DNA of 64,000 bases. It comes from Calditrichota bacterium. GTDB taxonomy: Bacteria > Zhuqueibacterota > Zhuqueibacteria > Thermofontimicrobiales > Thermofontimicrobiaceae. The DNA lies in NCBI GenBank assembly GCA_013152715.1, contig JAADFU010000094.1:76657-140656 (forward strand). The letters run 5' to 3'. The translations under genes and the position numbers were made by a program. The notes under the pieces are model-generated. The model saw only the letters and a program-made list of their open reading frames with translations. It searched no databases and was not told the origin of the DNA. Position 1 is the first letter of the stretch. The number at the start of each line of letters is the position of its first letter. Positions 7,381 to 46,953 of this stretch are shown piece after piece.

Positions 7381-8673
7381 TTATTCAAATTTTGGGTAGA
7401 GGGGAAATTTTTGGCACAGATCGAATACCCGCGATTTTATCTTTTCGTGAACGGCTTCACTGTCAATGTTCATTAAAACCTCGTTGATCATCTCAGCGAT
7501 TTCAACCATTTCCGGCTCTTTCATTCCGCGCGTGGTCAAAGCCGGCGTTCCGATTCGAATGCCGCTGGTAACAAAAGGACTCTGGTCGTCGAAAGGAACC
7601 ATGTTTTTATTCACGGTAATTCCCGCCTGTTCTAACGCCTTTTCTGATTGTTTTCCGGTGAGTCCTTTGTTGCGCAGATCAATGAGCATCAAGTGTGTAT
7701 CTGTGCCGTTGGATACAAGATTGTAATCCATTTCCATTAATTTATTTGCCAGCGTTTTGGCGTTTTTGATGACTTGTTTCGAATATTCTTTAAACTCAGG
7801 CTGTAACGCTTCCTTGAATGCCACAGCTTTGGCCGCGATGACGTGCATCAGCGGGCCGCCCTGAAAACCGGGGAAAACGTTGGAATCGACAATCTGTCCG
7901 ATTTTTCTGAGTTTTCCTTTGGGAGTCTTTATTCCCATGTCATTTTCTTCATTTTCCCCGACCAGAATCATGCCGCCGCGCGGTCCGCGCAACGTTTTGT
8001 GCGTTGTCGTCGTCACCAGATGACAGTGGGGAAGCGGGCTTTTAATTAAACCGGCAGCAATCAACCCCGCCGGATGTGCAATGTCGGCGATCAGTTTCGC
8101 ACCGACACGGTCGGCAATTTGGCGAAAAGCGGCGTAGTCAATTTCGCGCGGATAGGCGCTGGCGCCGGTGATAATTAGGCGTGGTTTTTCTTTCAACGCC
8201 AGGTCTTCCACCTGATTCATGTCGATGTAACCGCTCTTTTTGTCCACGCCGTAGGAGATGATGCGAAACAATTTGCCGGAAAAATTAACCGGGCTGCCGT
8301 GCGTCAAATGGCCGCCGTGATCCAGATTCATGCCCATCACGGTGTCGCCGGGCTTGGCGAAAGTAAAATAGGCGGCAATGTTCGCTTGCGAACCGGAATG
8401 GGGCTGGACATTGGCGTATTCTGCCTGGAAAAGTTGTTTGGCCCTTTCGCGCGCTAATTCTTCCGCTACATCGACATAAACGCAGCCGCCGTAGTAACGC
8501 TTTCCCGGATAGCCTTCGGCATATTTATTTGTCATTACCTGACCCATCGCTTCCATCACCGCTGCACTGACAAAATTTTCAGAAGCGATAAGTTCCAGTT
8601 TATCGTTCTGGCGCGAAACTTCATTTTGAATCGCTTGAAAAATTTCAGGGTCTGTTTCTTTTAACATAGACAT
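7381..8673 (-). CDS. glyA: serine hydroxymethyltransferase
   Basis: Full-length SHMT with PLP-lysine region [14 protein letters not shown]; 430 aa. Confidence 0.95.
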
Positions 8674-8795
8674 TTGTTTTCCTCAACAAATTGAAAAGTC
8701 AACTGATTACTCTTAATTTAAAGAGCGTGCTCCAAAACCTGTATTTCCAAAAATGTCAAATAATAGCAATTTATAATTCCAATATAGTCAATTAT

Positions 8796-9236
8796 TTACA
8801 TGCCAGTTAACTGATGAATTTTATTGATTCGTCTCAGATGCCTGCCGCCGTCAAAAGGGGTTTTTAGCCAGACATCGACAATTTTGAGAGCTTCAAAATG
8901 GTCGATGAGTTTTCCCGGCAATGCGAGAACATTTGCATTGTTGTGGCGTCTGCTTAATTCTGCCATTTTCTCAGTCAAACACAATGCCGCTCGGATGCCG
9001 CGTACTTTATTGGCGATGATGGACATGCCAATTCCCGACGCGCACATCAGAATTCCCAGATCAGCTCTTTGCTGGGCGACGGCGCGTGCAGCAAGAATCC
9101 CATAGTCCGGATAATCAACGGATTCGGATTTGAACGTACCAAAATCTTCTACTGCCAAGCCAATTTTTTCCAGATGCTCTTTTATCTTGTTTTTAAGATC
9201 AAGACCTGCATGGTCGGATGCAATCGCTATCGTCAT
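8796..9236 (-). CDS. rpiB: ribose-5-phosphate isomerase B (RpiB/LacAB family)
   Basis: MTIAIASDHAG...LMCASGIGMSIIANK motifs; the track ORF extends to 9296 but the start is probably the ATG at 9236 (146 aa); rpiB-glyA synteny. Confidence 0.85.
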   Translation of the reverse strand: MTIAIASDHAGLDLKNKIKEHLEKIGLAVEDFGTFKSESVDYPDYGILAARAVAQQRADLGILMCASGIGMSIIANKVRGIRAALCLTEKMAELSRRHNNANVLALPGKLIDHFEALKIVDVWLKTPFDGGRHLRRINKIHQLTGM

Positions 9237-9410
9237 TGGGAAAAGACCTTTTATGCCAAAAATTGCAAAATATGAAACGGGAAAACCGTTGCTCAACGAG
9301 GGATTTGATCAGGTTGAGCAAAAAACTCGTAGAATCAATTTGTCAAGCAATAACGAGCCTCAAAGGCGATCTGACTCTGAGGCTCGCTTTAAATCGTCAA
9401 ACTGCAGTTG

Positions 9411-10691
9411 TTAATAAATCCAGCTATAACACTTTTTCTTGGGCTTTGTCTGGCCCTTGTGGAAAAAGCGGTCTTCTTTTTTGGGAATGAAATCTTTGAG
9501 GTAATTGAGACGCGCTTGCGCCGTGTCTTTAAATTGCAAATCAGTTGTTGCTTTTTTGTACTCTTTGTAAGCTAATTCGTAAACAAGCTTGTCGTCAAAG
9601 TCAGCCACATCTTTGCCGGTTTGGCGCATACATTCATCGACGGCCGCTTCGAAAATCTCCGCGCGTACAATGTAAGCCAATCCGTACTGGTTGTCAATTT
9701 TCAACGCCTTGTTTGCGTATTTGCGCGCAGTGGAGAATTGTTTGAGTTCTTTGTAGCAGGTCGCAATGTCCGTGTAAATTTTTTTGTTATCCGGCTCCAT
9801 TTTTACGACTTCTTTGTAAATATTGATGGCGCGCTTGTAGTTGCCGACATTCTGCAATGCGGAAGCCAAATAAGTCATCGCCTGTACGTCATTCGGCTTC
9901 AAACTGAGCATCGCTCCAAAATTCGAGATGGCTTTCTCGTACTCGGCGACATTAAAATATTCTTTCCCCAGATTAAACAGGTTTTCTGTATTCTGCGGAT
10001 CTAACTTTTTTACTGATTCCATTTGCTGAATGGCAGCGTCAGCATTTCCGGTGGATTTGTAGAGCTTGCTCAGCGTTTGCTGGGCGTCATTGTCATTCGG
10101 ATCGAGCTTAACGACTTTCTCATAGGCGCGAATAGCGTCGTCAGTCTGATCGTTTTTAATGTAAAGCAGGGCTAATCGCTTCCAATCTGCGGGCCTCTTT
10201 TCATCAATAGCCAAGGCTTTTTCGTACTGGTCAATCGCCTCTTCGATGCGCCCGAGATTGTCGTAGATGTAGCCCAGGCTGCGATGAAGGTGCGCAATGT
10301 TGGGGAATCTTTGCACTCCCATTTCCAATGCAATTTGCGCTGAGTCCGCTTTGTTCAACTTGATATATGAGTCGGAAAGATAGGTGAATAAGTTTTTGTA
10401 TTTATTGATGGTGTCCAGCTTAGCGACTTTCCAGAAATAGGGAATAGCGTTGCTGTACATCTTGTTTTTATAATTTTCATAGCCCAGACTGAAATTAAGC
10501 GCCATTTTTCGTTCGTAAACTTGCGTTAAAGAATCCTGAATTGCTTTTTGGCGTTCAGGAGAAATTTGCGGCCCTTGCTGTTGGGCTGTCGGCACACAGC
10601 CAAAATTGAAAATTCCAGCGATTGCAAGCAAAGACAGAACCGCGACGATCAGTAATCCGGTTAGAGTTTTGCGTCCTACAAAATCTTTCAT
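9411..10691 (-). CDS. TPR-repeat protein with N-terminal signal/anchor
   Basis: At least 8 tandem TPR units (ALxxxP/AxxxxG periodicity); start refined to the ATG at 10691, preceded by GAGAGGTG (MKDFVGRKTLTGLLIVAVL...). Confidence 0.8.
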   Translation of the reverse strand: MKDFVGRKTLTGLLIVAVLSLLAIAGIFNFGCVPTAQQQGPQISPERQKAIQDSLTQVYERKMALNFSLGYENYKNKMYSNAIPYFWKVAKLDTINKYKNLFTYLSDSYIKLNKADSAQIALEMGVQRFPNIAHLHRSLGYIYDNLGRIEEAIDQYEKALAIDEKRPADWKRLALLYIKNDQTDDAIRAYEKVVKLDPNDNDAQQTLSKLYKSTGNADAAIQQMESVKKLDPQNTENLFNLGKEYFNVAEYEKAISNFGAMLSLKPNDVQAMTYLASALQNVGNYKRAINIYKEVVKMEPDNKKIYTDIATCYKELKQFSTARKYANKALKIDNQYGLAYIVRAEIFEAAVDECMRQTGKDVADFDDKLVYELAYKEYKKATTDLQFKDTAQARLNYLKDFIPKKEDRFFHKGQTKPKKKCYSWIY

Positions 10692-10872
10692 TATGACACC
10701 TCTCAAGAATGTTCGATCTTTTCCAACGTTCAAATTTTTATTAGTGTTATTTAAACAATTGAATTTAAAAATTTTTTTAAAAGATGCAAGAGAAAAGTTA
10801 CAAAATTTTATATTTTCAAAAAATAGTTTTTTTAGAATCGGCAAAATGGGAGCGCCGGAAAACAGCGAAGCG

Positions 10873-12123
10873 CTATTCCGCATTGTTATTTCTGCGAACA
10901 AACCATTTTTCGCCGGCAATCACGCTGATATACACCTTAAAAATCTGTTCTTTTACCGTATTGGTAGTCAATTCGCCGCGCCGGCCGTACTGCAGCGCTA
11001 AATCGACGCGACCCTTGCCGTTATAATAAGGAAATCCGAGTCCGAAAGAAACGCCGTATTCGTTGACAGTTTCGCCGTTTTCGTCTGTGTAATTGAGTTG
11101 CTGCAAAAAATACCCGGCGCGATAGGTCATCTTTTGGTGATATTTTGCCAACATATTAGTCGATGGCAGCATTTCCACGCCGGCGCTGATGCGGAAACGG
11201 TCTTGCAGTTCGCCTGCGACAATGCCGGATCCGTCAAATTTGCTCCACGGATCAGACAGGTAACTGGTCACAAACCGATATTTGTTGCGATACGTGTAGG
11301 ACGTGCCAATTGCCCACATTTCCGGCATGGTCATCTTTTGCTCTTCCGACACATAATCCGCGAGCTTGTTCGGAAACGAGCCTTTTATTGTTCCGAATTG
11401 CGTCTCATCGCGAAACGTCAGGTTGTGCCGCGGAATAAAAAATGCGCCCAAATACAGGGAAGAAATCGGATTGACGTTTGCGCCGAAGGTAAAAGAAGAG
11501 CCCCAGACTTTGCGCGAGATAGCGTCTGAAGTGTCCCAGAACAGATCGGACACATAATCCACACGCCACTTTTTTGTCATTTTCCCGAAATAATAATTGA
11601 AATAAACTCCCAAAGAAACGTTTTTGATCGGCGACAAACCAAAGCCGGCGTGGATTTTATTCAAACCGCCTTCTCCCTCGACTATTTTTGTGTAATGGTA
11701 ATCATCGATAGCGCCGGACACATTGAAAGAGTAGTCAAATTGTGAAAAGGGCGTCAGTCCTGCCGCTACTACAAATCTGTTTGTTTTCAACGGGAACGCG
11801 AGCGATACGCCATTGAAATTGCTGTATTTGGAAAAGCCGCTTCCGGCGTTAGATTTTGACCAAAACGACTGATGGACAAAATCGCCGCTCAATCGAGAAA
11901 GCGTGATGTTCACTAATGTCGCCGGGTTCAGACTATTGATTTGAAAACCGTCGGGCAAGGCGATGTTGGCGCCGCCCAGACCGATTGCCTGAGCGCTGGT
12001 GTAATCGATGCGCTCACCGAATCCGCGGTTGGAAAAAAACGATTGCGCCGTCGCCGGCGAACTGATAGCGATGAAAATTATTCCGATAATGAGAAAAAAT
12101 ATCGTTTTTCGTTTCATTGTCAA
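10873..12123 (-). CDS. FadL/OMPP1-like outer-membrane beta-barrel protein (paralogue 1)
   Basis: Signal peptide, then SAQAIGLGGANIA...NPATL N-terminal signature as in FadL/TodX, beta-rich throughout, C-terminal aromatic-rich strands. Confidence 0.55.
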   Translation of the reverse strand: MTMKRKTIFFLIIGIIFIAISSPATAQSFFSNRGFGERIDYTSAQAIGLGGANIALPDGFQINSLNPATLVNITLSRLSGDFVHQSFWSKSNAGSGFSKYSNFNGVSLAFPLKTNRFVVAAGLTPFSQFDYSFNVSGAIDDYHYTKIVEGEGGLNKIHAGFGLSPIKNVSLGVYFNYYFGKMTKKWRVDYVSDLFWDTSDAISRKVWGSSFTFGANVNPISSLYLGAFFIPRHNLTFRDETQFGTIKGSFPNKLADYVSEEQKMTMPEMWAIGTSYTYRNKYRFVTSYLSDPWSKFDGSGIVAGELQDRFRISAGVEMLPSTNMLAKYHQKMTYRAGYFLQQLNYTDENGETVNEYGVSFGLGFPYYNGKGRVDLALQYGRRGELTTNTVKEQIFKVYISVIAGEKWFVRRNNNAE

Positions 12124-13378: not shown

Positions 13379-14653
13379 TTATCGTTGAACCGAATAATTT
13401 TTTTCCCAGATTACTCTTCCGGATTTTATAACCTGATTCACGTGCGAAACGCCGAAATGATACGGCAAATAGCGGTAATTGGGAATTTCCCACAACGCAA
13501 AATCAGCCTGCGCGCCCGCTTCAATTTTCCCTAATTTTTCTCTGTCAATTGCCTTCGCCGCTGTTGCTGTGGTTGCTGCCCACAACTCTTTTGCGCTCAT
13601 CTTCATGTAAATGGAGGCAATGGTCATCATCAGCGGCAAAGATTGCGTCATGCAACTACCGGGATTGAAATCCGTGGCAATGGCTACTAGCGCGCCAGCG
13701 TCGAGCATTTTTCTCGCCGGCGCGTAGCGATTCAATCCCAGAAAAAACACGGCGCCTGGCAGCAAAACGGGCACGGTATTGCTATTCTTCAGCAGTCCAA
13801 TGACCTCGTCGCTGACATAATCGAGGTGGTCCGCAGAAATCGCATTTAATCGCGCCGCCAGTGCAGCGCCACCGCTGGAACTGAGTTGATCGGCATGAAT
13901 CTTCAATTTCAGCCCGGCATCGAGCGCCGCCGATAAAATTTTCTCTGTTTCTCTTAAATTAAAGACGTGTTCTTCGCAAAAAATGTCGCAAAATTCCGCC
14001 AGGTTTTCTTCGACGACGCGGGGAATCATTTCTTCGATGATCAACTGAATATATTTTTCCCGCTGATTGCGGTATTCATCGGGAATCTCATGGGCGCCCA
14101 AAAAAGTCGGAATCAAATCCAGCGGGTGGATGTCATTCAATTTTTTAATCGCCTGAAGCGATTTGATTTCATCTTCCAGCGACAGACCGTAACCACTTTT
14201 CGCCTCGATGGTTGTGGTGCCGCATTCCACGAATTGATCCAAATAGGGAAGGGCGTGTTCCACAAGTTCGTCTGTGGACGCTTTTCTCAATTGCCGTACC
14301 GAATAGCGAATGCCGCCCCCGGCTTTGGCGATTTCAGCGTAAGTTTTTCCCTGATTGCGCTGTTCGAATTCATGTTCGCGTGTGCCAAAAAACACCGGAT
14401 GCGTGTGCGCGTCAACGAGACCGGGCGACACGACAAATTCCCTGGCATCAATAACATGAGTTTCCGGCGAAAGTGTAATTTCAGCCAAAACCTCTTTTGT
14501 CGAGCCGAACGCCGCTATTTCGCCAGCGACACACGCCACGGCGCCGTCAGGAATAATTTTGAATTTGCTTTCATCAGTCGGCTTGTCAGCAGGACAGATG
14601 AGTTCCCGGGCGCTTTTTATCAAAAGATCGGGTTTAATTGTTTTTTCCGCCAT
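13379..14653 (-). CDS. hutI: imidazolonepropionase (amidohydrolase superfamily)
   Basis: VDAHTHPVFFGTREHEF...GGGIRYSV and downstream metal-binding His/Asp pattern characteristic of HutI; 424 aa. Confidence 0.85.
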   Translation of the reverse strand: MAEKTIKPDLLIKSARELICPADKPTDESKFKIIPDGAVACVAGEIAAFGSTKEVLAEITLSPETHVIDAREFVVSPGLVDAHTHPVFFGTREHEFEQRNQGKTYAEIAKAGGGIRYSVRQLRKASTDELVEHALPYLDQFVECGTTTIEAKSGYGLSLEDEIKSLQAIKKLNDIHPLDLIPTFLGAHEIPDEYRNQREKYIQLIIEEMIPRVVEENLAEFCDIFCEEHVFNLRETEKILSAALDAGLKLKIHADQLSSSGGAALAARLNAISADHLDYVSDEVIGLLKNSNTVPVLLPGAVFFLGLNRYAPARKMLDAGALVAIATDFNPGSCMTQSLPLMMTIASIYMKMSAKELWAATTATAAKAIDREKLGKIEAGAQADFALWEIPNYRYLPYHFGVSHVNQVIKSGRVIWEKNYSVQR

Positions 14654-15148
14654 GAGTGGGTTACATTCTTATTTGAAAAAGCCACGCCAATATAATGAAA
14701 ATTTCAGTGAAATGCCAATAAAAAAATGTGTTTTTCTCAAACAAAACTTTAACTCGCCACTGAGAAGTTTGTTTCATTAGTAAAATGATTTTGCAAACGG
14801 GAAAACAGCGGCTGATAAAACAATGCTCGTCAACTTTTCATATTTTATATTGACTTTTTGATTTAATTTTGTTATCTTAAATTTCTTGAACATTTACAGA
14901 AAGTTAGCAAACGGGGGCGTGCAAAAGGCGGATTATCAGAGCTTATTTTAGAGTAACGACGTCGGAATTGTCTGGCAGATTTTGAGAAAATTGTCAACCA
15001 AAGCCGACGGACGAATTATTTTCATTATTCGGGCGGCATAAAAAAATTGCGCTAATTGCCATTAGCAAAAAAATAATTTGGAAATCCAAAGCCGGGTCGA
15101 ATGCGAAACTCGATTGTAATCGATGAACGGTTCTTAAGGAGGATAACC

Positions 15149-15439
15149 GTGACTAAAGCCGACATCGTCGATATTATTGCCGAGGGAACGGGTTTAACAA
15201 AATTGGAGACGGCTGCTGTGGTTGATGGAGTGATTGCCACGATAAGCTATGCCCTAAAAAAAGGCGAGCCCGTGGATTTGCGTGGTTTCGGTCGCTTTCA
15301 CACTGTGCTGCGTGCGCCGCGCAAGGGAAGAAATCCCAAGACCGGCGAGGAAGTTGACATTCCGTCCCGTCGTATGCCAGTATTCCGCGTCTCCAAACAG
15401 TTGCGTGATTTTGTGAATGCGCCTGACGATGAGTTGTAA
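15149..15439 (+). CDS. hup: DNA-binding protein HU
   Basis: GFGRFHTVLRAPRKGRNPKTGEEVDIPSRRMPVF HU/IHF arm motif; start refined to the GTG at 15149 preceded by AAGGAGG. Confidence 0.85.
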   Translation: MTKADIVDIIAEGTGLTKLETAAVVDGVIATISYALKKGEPVDLRGFGRFHTVLRAPRKGRNPKTGEEVDIPSRRMPVFRVSKQLRDFVNAPDDEL

Positions 15440-15473
15440 AAATTTTAGTTGCCTTGAAAAATAACAGAATTGC

Positions 15474-42038: not shown

Positions 42039-42102
42039 CTCTCATTTCGCAAATTAAAATGTTTCCGTAAAATTGAAATTATTCTTCAAAACAAATTTTC
42101 CC

Positions 42103-42131
42103 TTGACATTGGAAAAGATATTCGTTATTAT
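42103..42131 (+). promoter_or_regulatory. sigma70-type promoter (TTGACA-17-TATTAT) driving the amidase module via a ~200-nt leader
   Basis: TTGACA 42103-42108, 17-nt spacer, TATTAT 42126-42131. Confidence 0.45.
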
Positions 42132-42338
42132 ATTTTTGCAATATTTATTTTTTGAATGGAAAGTAGTCTCTTTGTCAAGGGCGAGTGGGCTTACTGAAAA
42201 AAAGATGTGAAGTCTCCTTTTCATTTTTTGCTACAAAACCATAGAACGTTTCGCCCGGCGATATTGCGATAATTTTATTTCTGCATTTTTTAACTGCTCG
42301 TACGTACTTACGTTTCGAATCAAAAAACAGGAGGGGCC

Positions 42339-43712
42339 ATGGTCAATTATGATACGATATTTGTTCCTTTGTCCGCCGCGCTGGGGCTTTCCATTACGCT
42401 CGAACGAATATTGGAAATCGCCAAAAACATCATGCACCGGCTCATTGGCAATCAGAGGGGCAAAAGAATTCCTTCTGACGATGACTTTGCACGCGACCTT
42501 GCCGAGCTCGAAAATAGTTACCGCAGAGAAAAGCGGACGCGGGAGATCGAGAAACTGATCAAAGAACAGAAAAAAGAGCGCAAGAAGATTCTGGAACAAC
42601 TCAAAAAGGAACGGGAGACAAAACATCCCGACGTCAAAAAGATTCAATCCTGGAAAAAACAGCTTCAAGAATTGGACACTGACGTCGAGTGCGACGAAGA
42701 ATTTCCGCAAGACACGGTGCTGGTCGAGCCGGCGACCGATCAGGGCGATGGCAAAACAATGAAGCGGTTCTTGTTGCAGATGTTTGGTTTCACTGCCGGA
42801 ATTATCGGTGCTCACTATTCGGGGATTCAGCTATTTAACAGTTTTCTCCAGGCATTGGGCCAGCCGGCGATGCCCGCTAATCTGGATTATTTGTTGACCG
42901 GTTTGTTGATTGGCGGCGGCAGCGGACCGATGCATGTGCTGGTGGAGTTTATTTCGCAGAGAAAAATAGTTTTGCTCAAAGAGAAAAAAACGGAAGGGGA
43001 AGGAGCCGCTGACACGGGGGACAAAGAGGCGCCGACGGTAAAAGTTACTCCTTCTGTGGGCGATGAGAAGCTCTGGGCGGATGTTGTTTACAAAGGCGGC
43101 GTGGATCGCGATTTGTTGGAATATGTCCATCGCCGGGAAAAAGACCCGGATTTGATTGTGTTTCATCACACCGCCATGCCCATGGATGCCAGTTTCGAAG
43201 ATATTGTTCGTTTCATCAAAGACAAACGCGATTCTCAGGGAAATCGCTGGCTTACCGGATACCATTGTGTGGTCATGCCGGACGGCGCAATTAACGCCTT
43301 TTGTCGCTGGGATCGTTATGGCAATCACACCGCCGGAGTGAATTTGACATCGCTGGGAATTGCGCTGCACGGAAATTTTGAAATCGACCATCGCGTTCCT
43401 CATTCCAACGCCGACGGCAGTTTCGGCGACCAACGCCCCACGGAAATTCAACTCAAAAATGCGGCGCGCGTGGTCGCGCTGTGGCATTATTTGTACAAAA
43501 TTCCGCTCGATTTTTCCCGATCAATTCTTCCGCACCGTTATTTTTCAGATAAAGCCTGTCCGGGATCAAACTTTCCTTACCCGGAATTTCAAAAGTGGGT
43601 GGATTTCTTCAGCGAGAGGTGGCAGAAATCCGCTTTCATTCAGGAGAAATTAGCGGAATTCAAATTGAGACCTTATGTTTACGCCGAGCATGGCGGGGAG
43701 GCGAAATCATGA
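42339..43712 (+). CDS. membrane-anchored N-acetylmuramoyl-L-alanine amidase (Amidase_2/PGRP domain) with a novel N-terminal three-helix membrane + coiled-coil module
   Basis: C-terminal 150 aa aligns motif-by-motif with T7 lysozyme/PGRP: IVFHHTAM (Zn His), GYHCVV (Tyr), GNHTAGVN, HRYFSDKACPG (His, Lys, Cys at +0/+6/+8). N-terminus has a TM helix, a highly charged coiled coil (residues ~40-120) and two more hydrophobic helices. Confidence 0.8.
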   Translation: MVNYDTIFVPLSAALGLSITLERILEIAKNIMHRLIGNQRGKRIPSDDDFARDLAELENSYRREKRTREIEKLIKEQKKERKKILEQLKKERETKHPDVKKIQSWKKQLQELDTDVECDEEFPQDTVLVEPATDQGDGKTMKRFLLQMFGFTAGIIGAHYSGIQLFNSFLQALGQPAMPANLDYLLTGLLIGGGSGPMHVLVEFISQRKIVLLKEKKTEGEGAADTGDKEAPTVKVTPSVGDEKLWADVVYKGGVDRDLLEYVHRREKDPDLIVFHHTAMPMDASFEDIVRFIKDKRDSQGNRWLTGYHCVVMPDGAINAFCRWDRYGNHTAGVNLTSLGIALHGNFEIDHRVPHSNADGSFGDQRPTEIQLKNAARVVALWHYLYKIPLDFSRSILPHRYFSDKACPGSNFPYPEFQKWVDFFSERWQKSAFIQEKLAEFKLRPYVYAEHGGEAKS

Positions 43713-44299
43713 CAGTACTGCTGAAAGTGACAGTTTTGTACACGTTGGCCTTAGCGCTTGCTTTCCTGGTTGAACGGCTGTTGGAAATTTTGAAGTCATT
43801 TTATGATTTACTGGATAGCAAATTTGATTTGTACAAATTCTGGACAGTTCGCGCGTACAAAACAAGGAACGTGCTGGAAAACAAACTCCGCGTAGTGGAA
43901 TTTTTAGGCGCAAAAAGCATGGCCAAAATGCTGGATAAATTCAGAGAAAAACTGCTCAACACTTCGGGCGAATATCAGGGCGCGTTGCCCGTGATTTCCG
44001 GCGACCTGGTTCGCGCGATGACGATTCGCACTTATTGCCGAATTTTGGGGATGATTTTTGGCGTCTTTCTGGCGATTTGGATGAAGGTCGATTTGATTCA
44101 AATATTCCAAGGCGCTGTCAGCGACATGACGCACTGGCACCTGGAAATTCGCTCTGATCTGGTGCGCTACATTTTGACGGGCATCACTTTAGGCATTGGC
44201 TCGGAACCGGTGCACAAATTGATCCGAACATTCGAAAGGCGGCAAAAACGGAAAGAAGCCGAAGCTATTCAACTCAAAGCAAAGGAGCATGTACAATGA
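43709..44299 (+). CDS. three-helix membrane protein, paralogue of the amidase's N-terminal module (no enzyme domain)
   Basis: ATG overlaps the upstream stop (ATGA). Shares LERLLEIL first helix, DLIQIFQG second region and LTGITLGIGSEPVHKLIRTFERRQ third region with LERILEIA / GIQLFNSFLQ / LTGLLIGGGSGPMHVLVEFISQRK of the upstream protein. Confidence 0.65.
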   Translation: MTVLLKVTVLYTLALALAFLVERLLEILKSFYDLLDSKFDLYKFWTVRAYKTRNVLENKLRVVEFLGAKSMAKMLDKFREKLLNTSGEYQGALPVISGDLVRAMTIRTYCRILGMIFGVFLAIWMKVDLIQIFQGAVSDMTHWHLEIRSDLVRYILTGITLGIGSEPVHKLIRTFERRQKRKEAEAIQLKAKEHVQ

Positions 44300-44727
44300 C
44301 TTTTGATTTACTTGTGGCGTTAGTCATTGCAATTATCGCAATTGTGATTTTTCTCCTCTACCAGTTGGGAAATTTGCCGAGAAGTAGCAAACGGAGCGTT
44401 TTATATTTCATCAGCGCCGCGGCGGCGATTTTTGGCATTTCCCTTTTCACCAATCATCGTCTGAAGCTTCTGCACAAAGAATTGCAGGAGCGTGAGAAAA
44501 AACTCCGCGAAAAAGAGGAAGAATTGAAGAAATTAAAAGACAAAGAAAAAATGTCGGAAAAAGAGCTGAATTTTATGAAGGCAAAATTGGAGCGGCAGGT
44601 CGACGCCTATCGGAAACTGATGCTGCAGATCAAAGCGAAAAATAAAGCGGAAAAAGAGCGAATCGACAAGTTGTCGGGCGAAGATTTGCACAATGAGTTC
44701 AGCGCCATATTCGGAGGGGGTGAATGA
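44296..44727 (+). CDS. inner-membrane protein with two N-terminal TM helices and a ~90-aa coiled coil
   Basis: ATGA start/stop overlap with the upstream gene; LLVALVIAIIAIVIFLL and VLYFISAAAAIFGISLF helices, then a heptad-rich EKKLREKEEELKKLKDKEK segment. Confidence 0.6.
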   Translation: MTFDLLVALVIAIIAIVIFLLYQLGNLPRSSKRSVLYFISAAAAIFGISLFTNHRLKLLHKELQEREKKLREKEEELKKLKDKEKMSEKELNFMKAKLERQVDAYRKLMLQIKAKNKAEKERIDKLSGEDLHNEFSAIFGGGE

Positions 44728-44786: not shown

Positions 44787-45317
44787 ATGCGCAAATTTCA
44801 TTGGAGCCACACATTGGCAATTCTTTTGTTGCTCATTTCTTTTTTGCAGGCGCAAGAAACAAGCGACCAAAAATGTCAAATCGTCAAAGAATATCCGGAC
44901 GGCAGCGTGCTGATCAAAATCAACGACAAAGAGATGCTCGCTATCACCCAGGACATGGAACGGCGCATGTTGAAATTGAAGCGGGATGTTTTGGACGCGG
45001 AAAAGGAGATTTTGCTCAAAGACTCGCTACTTGCCAATTACGACAATACCATCGGCCAATATGAAAAAACGATCACACAGATGAAAGATTATATTCAGGA
45101 ATTGGAATATGTTCTTAAGGGCTACAAAAGCCTGGCGCGCGATTACAAAAAAATGCACGCGCCCTGGCTCAGTCTGCGCTTCGGAGTCGGTGCCACGAGC
45201 CGCGATCACAAACCAGCGATCATGATGGGGCTGGATGTTCGGCGAATTTTAATTTCAGGATTTGTGCAGGAAAGAAATTCCGGCGTGCTTGTGGGGACGA
45301 GCTTCCGCCTTTTTTAA
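44787..45317 (+). CDS. secreted coiled-coil protein with a short C-terminal beta region ending in Phe
   Basis: Signal peptide (cleavage near FLQA/QE), central coiled coil, C-terminal alternating-hydrophobic strands ...VLVGTSFRLF. Confidence 0.6.
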   Translation: MRKFHWSHTLAILLLLISFLQAQETSDQKCQIVKEYPDGSVLIKINDKEMLAITQDMERRMLKLKRDVLDAEKEILLKDSLLANYDNTIGQYEKTITQMKDYIQELEYVLKGYKSLARDYKKMHAPWLSLRFGVGATSRDHKPAIMMGLDVRRILISGFVQERNSGVLVGTSFRLF

Positions 45318-45729: not shown

Positions 45730-46953
45730 ATGAGAACTGTAAATTCTGCAATTGTGATGTCAGATTTGCACCTGGGACGCGAATTGAGTTATCTGGATAC
45801 GCGGCACCCTTCGTTCGAGCAAAACCGCCAGCATTTTTGGGAAGTATTGGAGCAAGCCGGAGAAGTTGAAGAGATTATTATTAATGGCGATTTTTTCGAA
45901 ATTGCGATGGAGGGCTGGAGTGATGTCTGCGAGCAGGCGCGCGCTTTTTTCCGGGCGTTGGCAAAAGTAAGTTCGCCGCAGCGAATTGTTTACATTCCCG
46001 GGAATCATGATCATCATTTGTGGCAATCATTAGTGGAGCGATTTTACATCTTTAGCGCCATCAGGAATAGGCGCGATTTGCCTGATCAAGCGCATTATCC
46101 GCTCTATTTTGTCGACCGGAAATTCAGCAGCGCGAACCCGGAACACGCTGCACACATGATTTTGCCCGATTTATGGCCCGACAAGAAATCGCGGCCGGAA
46201 TTTATCATCAAATATCCGCATCATTTGTTGGGCGTCAAAACCAAACAGGGAATTGATTACTATTTTTTCACTCACGGCCATTTTTTGGAGCCGCTGTTTC
46301 GGCCTTTGAATTTTTTAATTGAACCCGCCCGAATTGATGAGTTGGAAGGTTTCAATGCCTTGTGGTTGGAGTCGTTCAATTATCATTTGGGTCACGCCAG
46401 TCGACTGAGCAAACGGGTGATGGCTATCCTTTCCAGTTACGAGCAAGGCTACAGAAAATCGAAAAAGAAAATCAACCGCATTCTGAACGAAATTTTTCTC
46501 AATGTCAAACGTAAAACTCATTTAGGAGACGTCGGGTCATTTTTTCTGAAAATGGGCATGAAATTCGTCCTCAGATATTTTCCCAAAGAGGGGAGCTCCG
46601 CATTATTTCAAAGACCGATTGACCGAAATCTCCTTTCGGAAATAGACAATTATCTGGAAAAATATATTTTCCAGCGCTACCGACCTGAAAATTACGAGCG
46701 TCTTTTTTTACCGTCCCGCGATAAAATTCCCGTTCCGTTCACTTTTGTCTTCGGCCATACCCATCGACCCAATTTCATGCCGCAGGATCTGGCTTTTTCA
46801 AAAATCAAACTTGACAGCGAAAAAATTTCTGTTTTGAATACCGGCGGCTGGCTGCGCATCGACAGCGAAAAACAGAACGGCGAAAATGCCGGTATCTTGC
46901 TGATCAACGAACAAGGAAATCAATGGCTGTCTCTGGCAGGAAAATTGCGCTGA
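45730..46953 (+). CDS. metallophosphoesterase (calcineurin-like) with a ~200-aa C-terminal extension
   Basis: MPP motifs DLHLG, GDFFE, GNHDHH, THGH, GHTH in canonical order. Confidence 0.8.
   Translation: MRTVNSAIVMSDLHLGRELSYLDTRHPSFEQNRQHFWEVLEQAGEVEEIIINGDFFEIAMEGWSDVCEQARAFFRALAKVSSPQRIVYIPGNHDHHLWQSLVERFYIFSAIRNRRDLPDQAHYPLYFVDRKFSSANPEHAAHMILPDLWPDKKSRPEFIIKYPHHLLGVKTKQGIDYYFFTHGHFLEPLFRPLNFLIEPARIDELEGFNALWLESFNYHLGHASRLSKRVMAILSSYEQGYRKSKKKINRILNEIFLNVKRKTHLGDVGSFFLKMGMKFVLRYFPKEGSSALFQRPIDRNLLSEIDNYLEKYIFQRYRPENYERLFLPSRDKIPVPFTFVFGHTHRPNFMPQDLAFSKIKLDSEKISVLNTGGWLRIDSEKQNGENAGILLINEQGNQWLSLAGKLR

Follow-up and report, generated by a model that had tools for sequence, protein, structure and literature searches.

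Pairs of related membrane proteins encoded together, one of which is proposed to modulate the hydrolase control exerted by the other, are represented by S105/S107 of phage lambda and CidA/LrgA of Staphylococcus. S105 and S107 are products of one gene; CidA and LrgA are encoded in separate operons, have four or more helices and belong to the known LrgA/CidA family. Phage-type lysis cassettes and type 10 secretion systems (T10SS) are compact operons that combine inner-membrane protein(s), a murein hydrolase and two coiled-coil envelope proteins, such as lambda S/R/Rz/Rz1, ChiWXYZ of Serratia and the system of Yersinia entomophaga, and chromosomal holin/endolysin/spanin cassettes of this kind are used for toxin release (PMC10847048). 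Natural holin-endolysin fusions also exist, such as the TpeE/BhlA-family fusion of Clostridium sporogenes, in which an endolysin-type enzyme is translationally fused C-terminally to a small membrane protein considered to take the enzyme across or to expose it (PMC9527704). Here we describe a locus (locus tags GXO74_07735/07740) in a 64,000-nucleotide stretch of a Calditrichota metagenome-assembled genome (MAG), contig JAADFU010000094.1, hereafter the window; coordinates are those of the window, and all features of the locus lie on the plus strand. Gene 1 (42339..43712; 457 amino acids (aa)) consists of a three-helix membrane module, a flexible linker and an Amidase_2 domain, as delineated from the open reading frame (ORF) list, Pfam, homologues and an AlphaFold2 (AF2) model, and gene 2 (43709..44299; 196 aa) encodes a stand-alone paralogue of the membrane module, delineated from its ORF, homologues and AF2. 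Together they form the core of a hitherto undescribed envelope cassette of four genes, which occurs in diderm bacteria.

The cassette resembles phage-type lysis cassettes and T10SS in its compact operon, its inner-membrane proteins, its murein hydrolase, predicted to wait on the cytoplasmic side, and its two coiled-coil partners, one in the inner membrane and the other directed to the outer membrane. The module is like class I holins in its three helices, predicted N-out/C-in orientation and basic C-terminal tail. Unlike lysis cassettes, no cassette protein matches a model of a holin, endolysin-accessory protein or spanin; the hydrolase is covalently fused to the module; the module is duplicated, approximately twice the size of a holin and equipped with a large domain predicted to be cytoplasmic; the outer-membrane partner appears to be anchored by beta strands rather than by lipid; and the cassette is a chromosomal unit present in more than 10 phyla, with no phage or cargo genes nearby. 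Unlike in holin/antiholin-like pairs, one of the two paralogues carries the hydrolase itself. TpeE holins, found in monoderm Firmicutes and built of a single helix and an additional amphipathic one, have no sequence relationship to gene 1, which differs from them in its three helices, its free paralogous partner, the two additional envelope genes and its diderm hosts.

Gene 1 and gene 2 share a colinear membrane module

A preliminary description of this DNA had claimed that the N-terminal membrane module of the amidase is duplicated as the next gene, with three colinear blocks in common, and had named pairwise alignment and a profile-profile search among the means of checking it. Sequence comparison confirmed that gene 2 and the first 211 residues of gene 1 are colinear homologues and true paralogues. 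In BLASTP, residues 1-230 of gene 1 aligned with gene 2 over the C-terminal block only (30% identity over 88 aa, E = 3e-5). Profile-profile alignment in hhalign, using 108 gene 1 N-terminal modules and 12 gene 2 homologues as input, gave an E-value of 1.3e-15 (probability 98.6%) in local mode, covering the C-terminal hairpin, and of 2.2e-18 (99.2%) in global mode, with gene 1 residues 1-211 colinear with residues 1-181 of gene 2. The N-terminal block (first 40 residues) was significant by itself (E = 1.4e-9, 96.4%), and the two families aligned end to end in an unguided MAFFT alignment. All three blocks were thus recovered by BLASTP, MAFFT or hhalign, and the similarity lies far beyond chance resemblance of transmembrane (TM) helices.

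Reciprocal searches with hidden Markov models (HMMs) agree with this relationship. Among 4069 ORFs from 78 loci, many of them encoding membrane proteins, an HMM built from gene 2 homologues alone matched 66 of 79 gene 1 proteins and no other ORF, and an HMM of the gene 1 module matched 63 of 78 gene 2 proteins with no other significant match; within the window (253 ORFs) the latter detected gene 2 at 1.9e-14. Columns E22, R23, E26, G118, G158, G162 and G164 are invariant in both families, and P167 and H169 nearly so, such that the ERxxE residues (E22/R23/E26) and a GxGSxPxH motif are common to the two. The median identity is 17% between families and 19% for pairs from the same locus, compared to 26-27% within each family; the lower identity between than within families points to an old duplication rather than one that recurred in individual loci. 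The homologue sets comprised more than 400 full-length relatives of gene 1 and, with an alignment as seed, at least 192 relatives of gene 2 of 180-214 aa.

The first loop is where the two families differ in length. It has a median of 116 aa in gene 1 (range 70-162) and of 90 aa in gene 2, in which it is conserved and helical. Since gene 2 has its own loop of approximately 90 aa at the same position, the net excess of gene 1 is approximately 30 aa, and not the extra coiled coil of approximately 80 aa initially ascribed to it.

Architecture and predicted topology of the membrane module

In gene 1, TM1 (aa 2-21) is followed directly by the invariant motif E22-R23-x-x-E26-x-x-K29 (42342..42425), as seen in the family alignments and in the hhalign N-terminal block. 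Loop 1 (aa 30-136; 42426..42746) is a Lys/Glu-rich helical hairpin of variable length, with 17-18 Lys and Arg residues, that is predicted to be cytoplasmic (AF2 helices 47-92 and 99-114). The TM2-TM3 hairpin (aa 143-207; 42765..42959), which includes the kinked helix LTGLLIGGGSxPxH, is delineated by BLASTP, hhalign and AF2 (helices 137-161, 180-192 and 196-207), and a low-complexity flexible linker (aa 208-261; 42960..43121) then leads to the amidase. The AF2 predicted local distance difference test (pLDDT) score of the linker falls below 50 for aa 210-240, and the linkers of gene 1 homologues at the same place are rich in Pro, Ala and Glu. Gene 2 is composed of TM1 (approximately aa 2-21), ERxxE starting from aa 22, the conserved helical loop (aa 30-105), TM2 (approximately aa 107-127), TM3 (approximately aa 150-168) and a basic tail (aa 169-196). 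The AF2 models, both of monomers, have pLDDT values of 79 (gene 1) and 81 (gene 2) with confident membrane parts, and both show helix 1, a helical insertion, helix 2 and a kinked helix 3 that is broken at GSxP.

Counting of Lys and Arg residues across the families gave approximately 0 in the N-terminal tail, 16-18 in loop 1 and approximately 1 in loop 2, with a further 3.5 (gene 1) or 6.3 (gene 2) in the 20 residues after helix 3. Gene 1 variants with a short loop 1 keep this loop strongly basic, and N-terminal extensions of 10-35 aa in homologues contain no Lys or Arg. By the positive-inside rule, the module is predicted to adopt an N-out/C-in topology. This would place ERxxE, at the end of helix 1, and PxH, in helix 3, at one cytoplasmic interface, and the amidase of gene 1 would be cytoplasmic, on a disordered tether of 30-60 residues. 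In one Rhodothermales locus (L047:4626-5519), the gene 2 ORF is 297 aa long, with an N-terminal extension of approximately 100 aa that starts like a signal peptide; this extension, if real, would be independent support for N-out; alternatively, the ORF may have been called too long.

No named family accommodates the module, as the preliminary description had surmised. In searches of the window proteins against Pfam, NCBIfam, PHROG and PADLOC, the module and gene 2 had no family match, and the N-terminal 260 residues of gene 1 returned coiled-coil noise only. No significant fold match to the module was found in PDB or BFVD, and the gene 2 profile retrieved noise only from PDB sequences. Holin models (Pfam Phage_holin_* and PHROG lysis) matched neither gene 1 nor gene 2, and a single one of 45 gene 2 homologues matched Phage_holin_2_3, at E = 0.061. 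Holins as a class are membrane proteins of less than 150 aa with at least one TM helix and a charged C-terminal tail, encoded beside an endolysin. The module has TM helices and a basic tail, and it is adjacent or fused to an endolysin-type amidase; its size (196 aa for gene 2 and 211 aa for the gene 1 module) and its loop (90-120 aa) are above the usual. A representative library of 1.84 billion sequences was searched with a combined gene 1 plus gene 2 profile, which unintentionally kept amidase columns and was therefore not clean; complete module proteins among the top 150 matches were either amidase fusions of approximately 330-555 aa or free forms of approximately 170-215 aa, and the remaining top 150 matches were fragments, amidase-only matches or apparently chimeric predictions.

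Gene 1 carries an endolysin-type amidase

The C-terminal part of gene 1 (43122..43709) comprises an Amidase_2 domain of the T7 lysozyme/PGRP type, as supported by Pfam, PDB sequence matches and Foldseek, followed by a conserved helical tail that ends in FKLKPY. Residues 268-409 belong to Pfam PF01510 (64.1 bits, cutoff 26), and matches to PHROG endolysins and amidases reach down to 6e-13. The active-site residues of T7 lysozyme are H17, Y46, H122, K128 and C130. In gene 1, H276, H277, Y308, H399 and C407 are invariant among 43 homologues, K405 is kept in at least 90% of them, and the catalytic and Zn-binding residues align with the HHT, GYH and H...CPG motifs of LysC. As judged from these alignments, the amidase active site is intact, with Zn ligands and the catalytic Tyr and Lys retained.

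LysC, PGRPs and T7 lysozyme were matched among PDB sequences. Foldseek against PDB gave 41 matches at E ≤ 0.01 (target TM-score 0.48-0.72), all of them amidase endolysins, PGRPs or T7 lysozyme, the top ones being LysCS/LysC, Psa, PGRP-LB, Ts2631 and T7 lysozyme (target TM-score 0.6-0.72). Ph2119 is also among the nearest solved endolysin structures, the nearest PGRPs are catalytic ones, and neither AmpD nor AmiD occurs among these 41 matches. Gene 1 is thus alike to T7 lysozyme, PGRPs and Amidase_2 endolysins, such as LysC, Ts2631 and Psa, in fold, Zn ligands and catalytic Tyr/Lys. Known Amidase_2 endolysins are soluble or secreted, whereas the gene 1 enzyme is fused behind a three-helix module and carries a C-terminal helical extension.

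A four-gene cassette conserved in diderm bacteria

Genes 1-4 form one operon. The ATG of gene 2 (43709) overlaps the stop codon of gene 1 as ATGA, and the start of gene 3 (44296..44727; 143 aa) overlaps the stop of gene 2 in the same way; gene 4 (44787..45317; 176 aa) follows. AGGAGG lies six bases 5' of the gene 1 start, and GGGGAGG precedes gene 2. A sigma-70-like promoter, TTGACA-17-TATTAT (42103..42131; 11 of 12 consensus positions, a consensus match only), is located approximately 200 nucleotides (nt) 5' of gene 1, and the leader between them (42132-42338, approximately 200 nt) has no match to an Rfam family or riboswitch. At the end of gene 4, a terminator-like hairpin with a T-run (45291..45308) was found by pattern match only. 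A 56-aa antisense ORF (42054-42224) overlaps the promoter region.

The conservation of this arrangement was assessed in 78 loci, obtained from neighbourhoods of distant homologues and from GTDB species representatives (72 loci), using HMMs of the four window genes; nearly all cassette sequences are derived from MAGs. Gene 2 is located directly 3' of gene 1 in all 77 loci in which the contig continues past gene 1. The full order gene 1-gene 2-gene 3-gene 4 is present in 56 of the 78 loci, 53 times as four clean ORFs and three times with one gene split in two ORFs. Gene 3 was detected by HMM in 66 loci and gene 4 in 61, and most of the loci outside the 56 are truncated by the contig end or contain copies of gene 3 or gene 4 too divergent for detection by the HMMs. 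In Thalassolituus, for example, the counterpart of gene 4 is 213 aa long and combines a signal peptide, a Cys residue, a Gln-rich coiled coil and an ...AELRF end. The preliminary view of a gene 1/gene 2 pair holds, but the functional unit is of four genes rather than two.

Among the members of the cassette, the pairwise distances of the gene 1 module and gene 2 are the most strongly correlated (r = 0.93), compared to 0.85-0.89 for the other pairs. Given the ATGA overlap, the adjacency in 77 of 77 loci, this correlation and the shared invariant polar cluster, it is plausible that the products of gene 1 and gene 2 form a hetero-oligomer.

The carriers span more than 10 phyla and are all diderm. 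They include Calditrichota, KSB1, Gemmatimonadota, Acidobacteriota/Aminicenantes, Bacteroidota and Gammaproteobacteria, as well as Myxococcota, Desulfobacterota, Fibrobacterota, Nitrospirota and Ignavibacteriales, and cultured carriers are Thalassolituus pacificus 59MF3M-4 and T. alkanivorans TMPB967. A tblastn search with gene 2 against 50,697 phage records gave no match, and gene 1 matched these records in its amidase domain only, with 25-28% identity to amidases of a T7-like Klebsiella phage and of Clostridium phage. No confirmed relative was found in IMG/VR by a pattern scan followed by tblastn, and no cassette was present in the PLSDB plasmids. Phage origin and plasmid carriage were therefore rejected, the cassette being absent from the phage, IMG/VR and PLSDB collections searched. 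No account of the cassette emerged from full-text searches of the literature; a paper on the Lipocone superfamily was checked and is unrelated to it.

Sequence features of genes 3 and 4

Gene 3, delineated by its ORF, family alignment and HMM, encodes two hydrophobic helices separated by a short basic loop (LPKKS-like), followed by a coiled coil of approximately 85 aa and a conserved C-terminal motif, IDKLSGEDLHxEF. An Asp or Glu residue stands directly before the first hydrophobic helix in most homologues, which recalls the essential Asp of TolR/ExbD/MotB. The charge distribution is compatible with the coiled coil on either face of the membrane. Gene 3 belongs to no Pfam or PDB family, with sub-threshold and inconsistent Pfam matches only across 36 members. 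NCBIfam SLATT_5 scored 17.2 bits against a cutoff of 60, PADLOC RTasSLATT was matched at 8e-5, and Pfam SLATT_1 was found in only two of the 36 members, so that gene 3 was not assigned to the SLATT family. A PHROG Rz-like spanin was matched weakly (E = 0.01), and gene 3 has two helices where an i-spanin has a single N-terminal TM helix (N-in/C-out) ahead of a periplasmic coiled coil.

Gene 4 (family alignment and HMM) has a signal peptide of the signal peptidase I type, a small N-terminal domain with a conserved Cys, a coiled coil of approximately 60 aa, four short beta strands and a terminal Phe, and its homologues end in an aromatic residue (Phe/Trp) with few exceptions. This C-terminal end is beta-signal-like, the type of end that marks outer-membrane beta-barrel insertion, and the shortness of the beta segment suggests an oligomeric barrel. 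In its architecture gene 4 resembles a miniature trimeric-autotransporter anchor without a family match: none of 31 homologues matched Pfam, including YadA_anchor, such that the coiled coil, four strands and terminal Phe amount to a resemblance only, and the profile retrieved noise only from PDB sequences. A single Cys shortly past the cleavage site occurs in Calditrichota, KSB1, Acidobacteriota and proteobacterial lineages and not in Bacteroidota; it could form an intermolecular disulphide. In one locus (L001, 7936-8748) the gene 4 homologue is divided into two ORFs, and in its close relative (L017, 2702-3514) it is one ORF of 270 aa; the split is probably a frameshift or an assembly error. 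The gene 4 coiled coil in this lineage is expanded and repeat-like.

Genomic surroundings

No conserved neighbour, cargo gene or regulator was enriched around the cassette, either by BLAST clustering of 459 flanking ORFs or in a Pfam census of 118 immediate neighbours; the latter are overwhelmingly housekeeping genes with no defence or phage family enriched. Individual loci have notable neighbours in arrangements that are not conserved elsewhere. L001 (156-4877) has a GH108+PG_binding lysozyme and a protein with the LprI lysozyme-inhibitor domain upstream, and L004 has an Aspzincin_M35 peptidase and an eCIS_core protein upstream and a SIR2-nSTAND protein downstream (653-2557 and 8010-11407).

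In the window, the next gene downstream (45730-46953) encodes a 407-aa calcineurin-like metallophosphoesterase, which scored 27.5 bits with the NCBIfam model 'DS9 anti-phage phosphoesterase', far below the cutoff of 420. A different Metallophos protein is located upstream of the cassette in L002, and there is no consistent association. At approximately 14650-15470 the coding strand switches, with minus-strand genes up to 14.6 kb and plus-strand genes from 15.5 kb, and the GC skew turns persistently positive. No DnaA-box cluster, tRNA or Rfam element was detected in any part of the window, and a replication origin near the strand switch was rejected for want of a DnaA-box cluster.

Discussion

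We tentatively propose that genes 1-4 constitute a cellular holin-like/endolysin/spanin-like cassette for controlled envelope breach, a reading to which we give somewhat less than an even chance. In this proposal, the four genes would be a self-contained, cell-encoded envelope cassette with the paralogue pair at its core. The amidase of gene 1 would rest on the cytoplasmic face, kept from its murein substrate, and gene 1 and gene 2 would co-assemble as a hetero-oligomer through the ERxxE/GSxPxH cluster. This assembly may act as a gate of the class I holin type: upon a regulated rearrangement, a local lesion would form in the inner membrane, and the tethered amidase would reach and cut murein through or beside it. 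Gene 2 may set the threshold or timing in the manner of an antiholin or co-holin, and gene 3, in the inner membrane, and gene 4, secreted and with an outer-membrane beta anchor, may perform the remaining envelope steps, a spanin-like role that would not imply spanin ancestry. The cell would thereby undergo controlled autolysis or let out its contents in a lysis-type, T10SS-like manner. Both the holin-endolysin fusions (PMC9527704) and the chromosomal T10SS cassettes (PMC10847048) are precedents. The preliminary description had likened the pair to a holin and antiholin, and this analogy fits in part: three helices in a predicted N-out/C-in orientation and a C-terminal tail of basic character agree with it, but the module matches none of the holin models tested and is twice the usual size.

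Several observations weigh against the proposal of a lysis-type cassette. No holin, spanin or T10SS model in Pfam, NCBIfam, PHROG or PADLOC matches any of the cassette proteins, and the module, of approximately 200 aa with a cytoplasmic loop of approximately 90-120 aa, compares poorly with class I holins of approximately 100 aa. Its topology is read from charge counts, and a tethered amidase would need a lesion or cleavage to reach murein. The topology of gene 3 is ambiguous; were its coiled coil cytoplasmic, as it may be, the analogy to spanins would fail. The gene 4 family has AxA|Q-type signal peptides and no lipobox; gene 4 is accordingly not a lipoprotein and hence not an o-spanin. Nor do the housekeeping surroundings, which lack cargo, regulator and phage genes, give a reason for a cell to retain a lysis device. 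Lastly, two Oceanospirillales loci, L051 (5992-7820) and L060 (5578-7445), have the gene 1-gene 2 pair only, and the sister Thalassolituus loci L073, L075 and L076 keep a divergent gene 3 and the 213-aa gene-4-like protein. The pair without genes 3 and 4 suggests that the paralogues may be the minimal functional core.

One alternative is an energy-transducing machine: a TolQ/ExbB/MotA-like ring of gene 1 and gene 2 modules would surround gene 3, and the amidase would be driven or regulated by an ion flow that also couples to gene 4, for non-lytic remodelling of the wall or envelope. The cassette is alike to TolQ/ExbB/MotA systems in the predicted three-helix N-out/C-in topology, the large cytoplasmic helical domain between TM1 and TM2, the Gly-rich TM2 and TM3 with a Pro in TM3, and an envelope-spanning gene set that joins inner- and outer-membrane components in one system, and the Asp/Glu before TM1 of most gene 3 members is placed as in TolR/ExbD/MotB. 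One UniRef record even labels a Thalassolituus gene 2 homologue as 'MotA/TolQ/ExbB proton channel domain-containing protein'. The top Foldseek PDB matches of the gene 2 model are mostly TolQ/ExbB chains, but they are not significant (E approximately 0.7-3, TM-score approximately 0.2, root-mean-square deviation approximately 18 Å) and do not indicate a common fold. Statistical similarity of sequence is likewise absent, and the conserved residues are other ones: hhalign of either family against ExbB plus TolQ, with manually entered template sequences, gave probabilities of 0.1-0.2%, neither gene 1, gene 2 nor any of the 45 gene 2 homologues matched PF01618 at E ≤ 1, and the profile search of PDB sequences returned no TolQ/ExbB. 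Membership in the TolQ/ExbB family was thus rejected by hhalign, the likeness being one of architecture only. In addition, remodelling of murein is out of reach for a cytoplasmic amidase unless it crosses the membrane. We regard such a motor as unlikely. A form of it compatible with these results is a new, cell-autonomous envelope machine of diderms, in which a hetero-oligomeric paralogue ring with TolQ/ExbB-like topology but independent origin would use membrane energisation to deploy the attached amidase, together with a new type of beta-anchored coiled-coil partner, gene 4. Such a machine would be a novel class of regulated device for murein cutting or secretion and not a degenerate lysis module of phage descent; to this we also assign a low probability.

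Alternatively, the amidase may work in the cytoplasm, either in AmpD-like recycling, sensing or signalling with imported muropeptides, or as a membrane-tethered toxin on lipid- or UDP-linked N-acetylmuramic acid-peptide precursors at the inner leaflet; gene 2 would then restrain the toxin, with growth arrest or a suicide switch as the result. The domain is predicted to be cytoplasmic with an intact active site, the tether may keep it at the membrane, the site of lipid I and lipid II synthesis, and one IMG record calls a homologue fragment 'AmpD'. The nearest relatives are nevertheless endolysins, T7 lysozyme and PGRPs, with AmpD and AmiD absent from the 41 Foldseek matches and no NCBIfam AmpD match, and a cytoplasmic function leaves gene 4 without a role, even though nearly all loci conserve this secreted outer-membrane partner. 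We consider this explanation doubtful.

It is quite improbable that the cassette brings about death or lysis of infected cells, be it as an anti-phage abortive-infection system or as a lysis cassette domesticated from a prophage. A sporadic phyletic distribution that suggests horizontal spread, the SIR2-nSTAND gene adjoining one locus and a ParE gene adjoining another, the weak SLATT-type effector matches of gene 3 and the endolysin-type amidase would fit this idea. The searches do not: PADLOC-DB 2.0 gave best E-values of 0.019-0.024 for genes 1, 2 and 4 and weak SLATT-type or coiled-coil matches only for gene 3, the cassette has no sensor or nucleic-acid-targeting component, the 118 neighbours show no enrichment of defence or phage genes, and the cassette is absent from the 50,697 phage records, IMG/VR and PLSDB. 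The notion that gene 1 and gene 2 resemble each other merely through the composition of unrelated TM helices, as the single block aligned by pairwise BLASTP might suggest, has next to no probability and is refuted by the hhalign results, whole and per block, by family HMMs that cross-match only each other among 4069 ORFs, and by the shared invariant charged and polar residues and a partnership kept in 77 loci.

The module, gene 2, gene 3 and gene 4 have no curated family, yet their order and coupling are kept across more than 10 Gram-negative phyla, and the cultured Thalassolituus carriers make the cassette testable. Should the proposal of a holin-like, endolysin and spanin-like cassette fail, an endolysin-type amidase predicted at the cytoplasmic face would still be unexplained and of interest. 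If it is true, the cassette would be the first widespread cellular system with a hydrolase built into a membrane gate and regulated by an enzyme-free paralogue, and would provide a simple, genetically tractable model for the exposure of folded enzymes to the wall by holin-like proteins, for the safeguards that bacteria place on a device for self-lysis or lysis-type secretion, and for an outer-membrane step that proceeds without a lipoprotein spanin.

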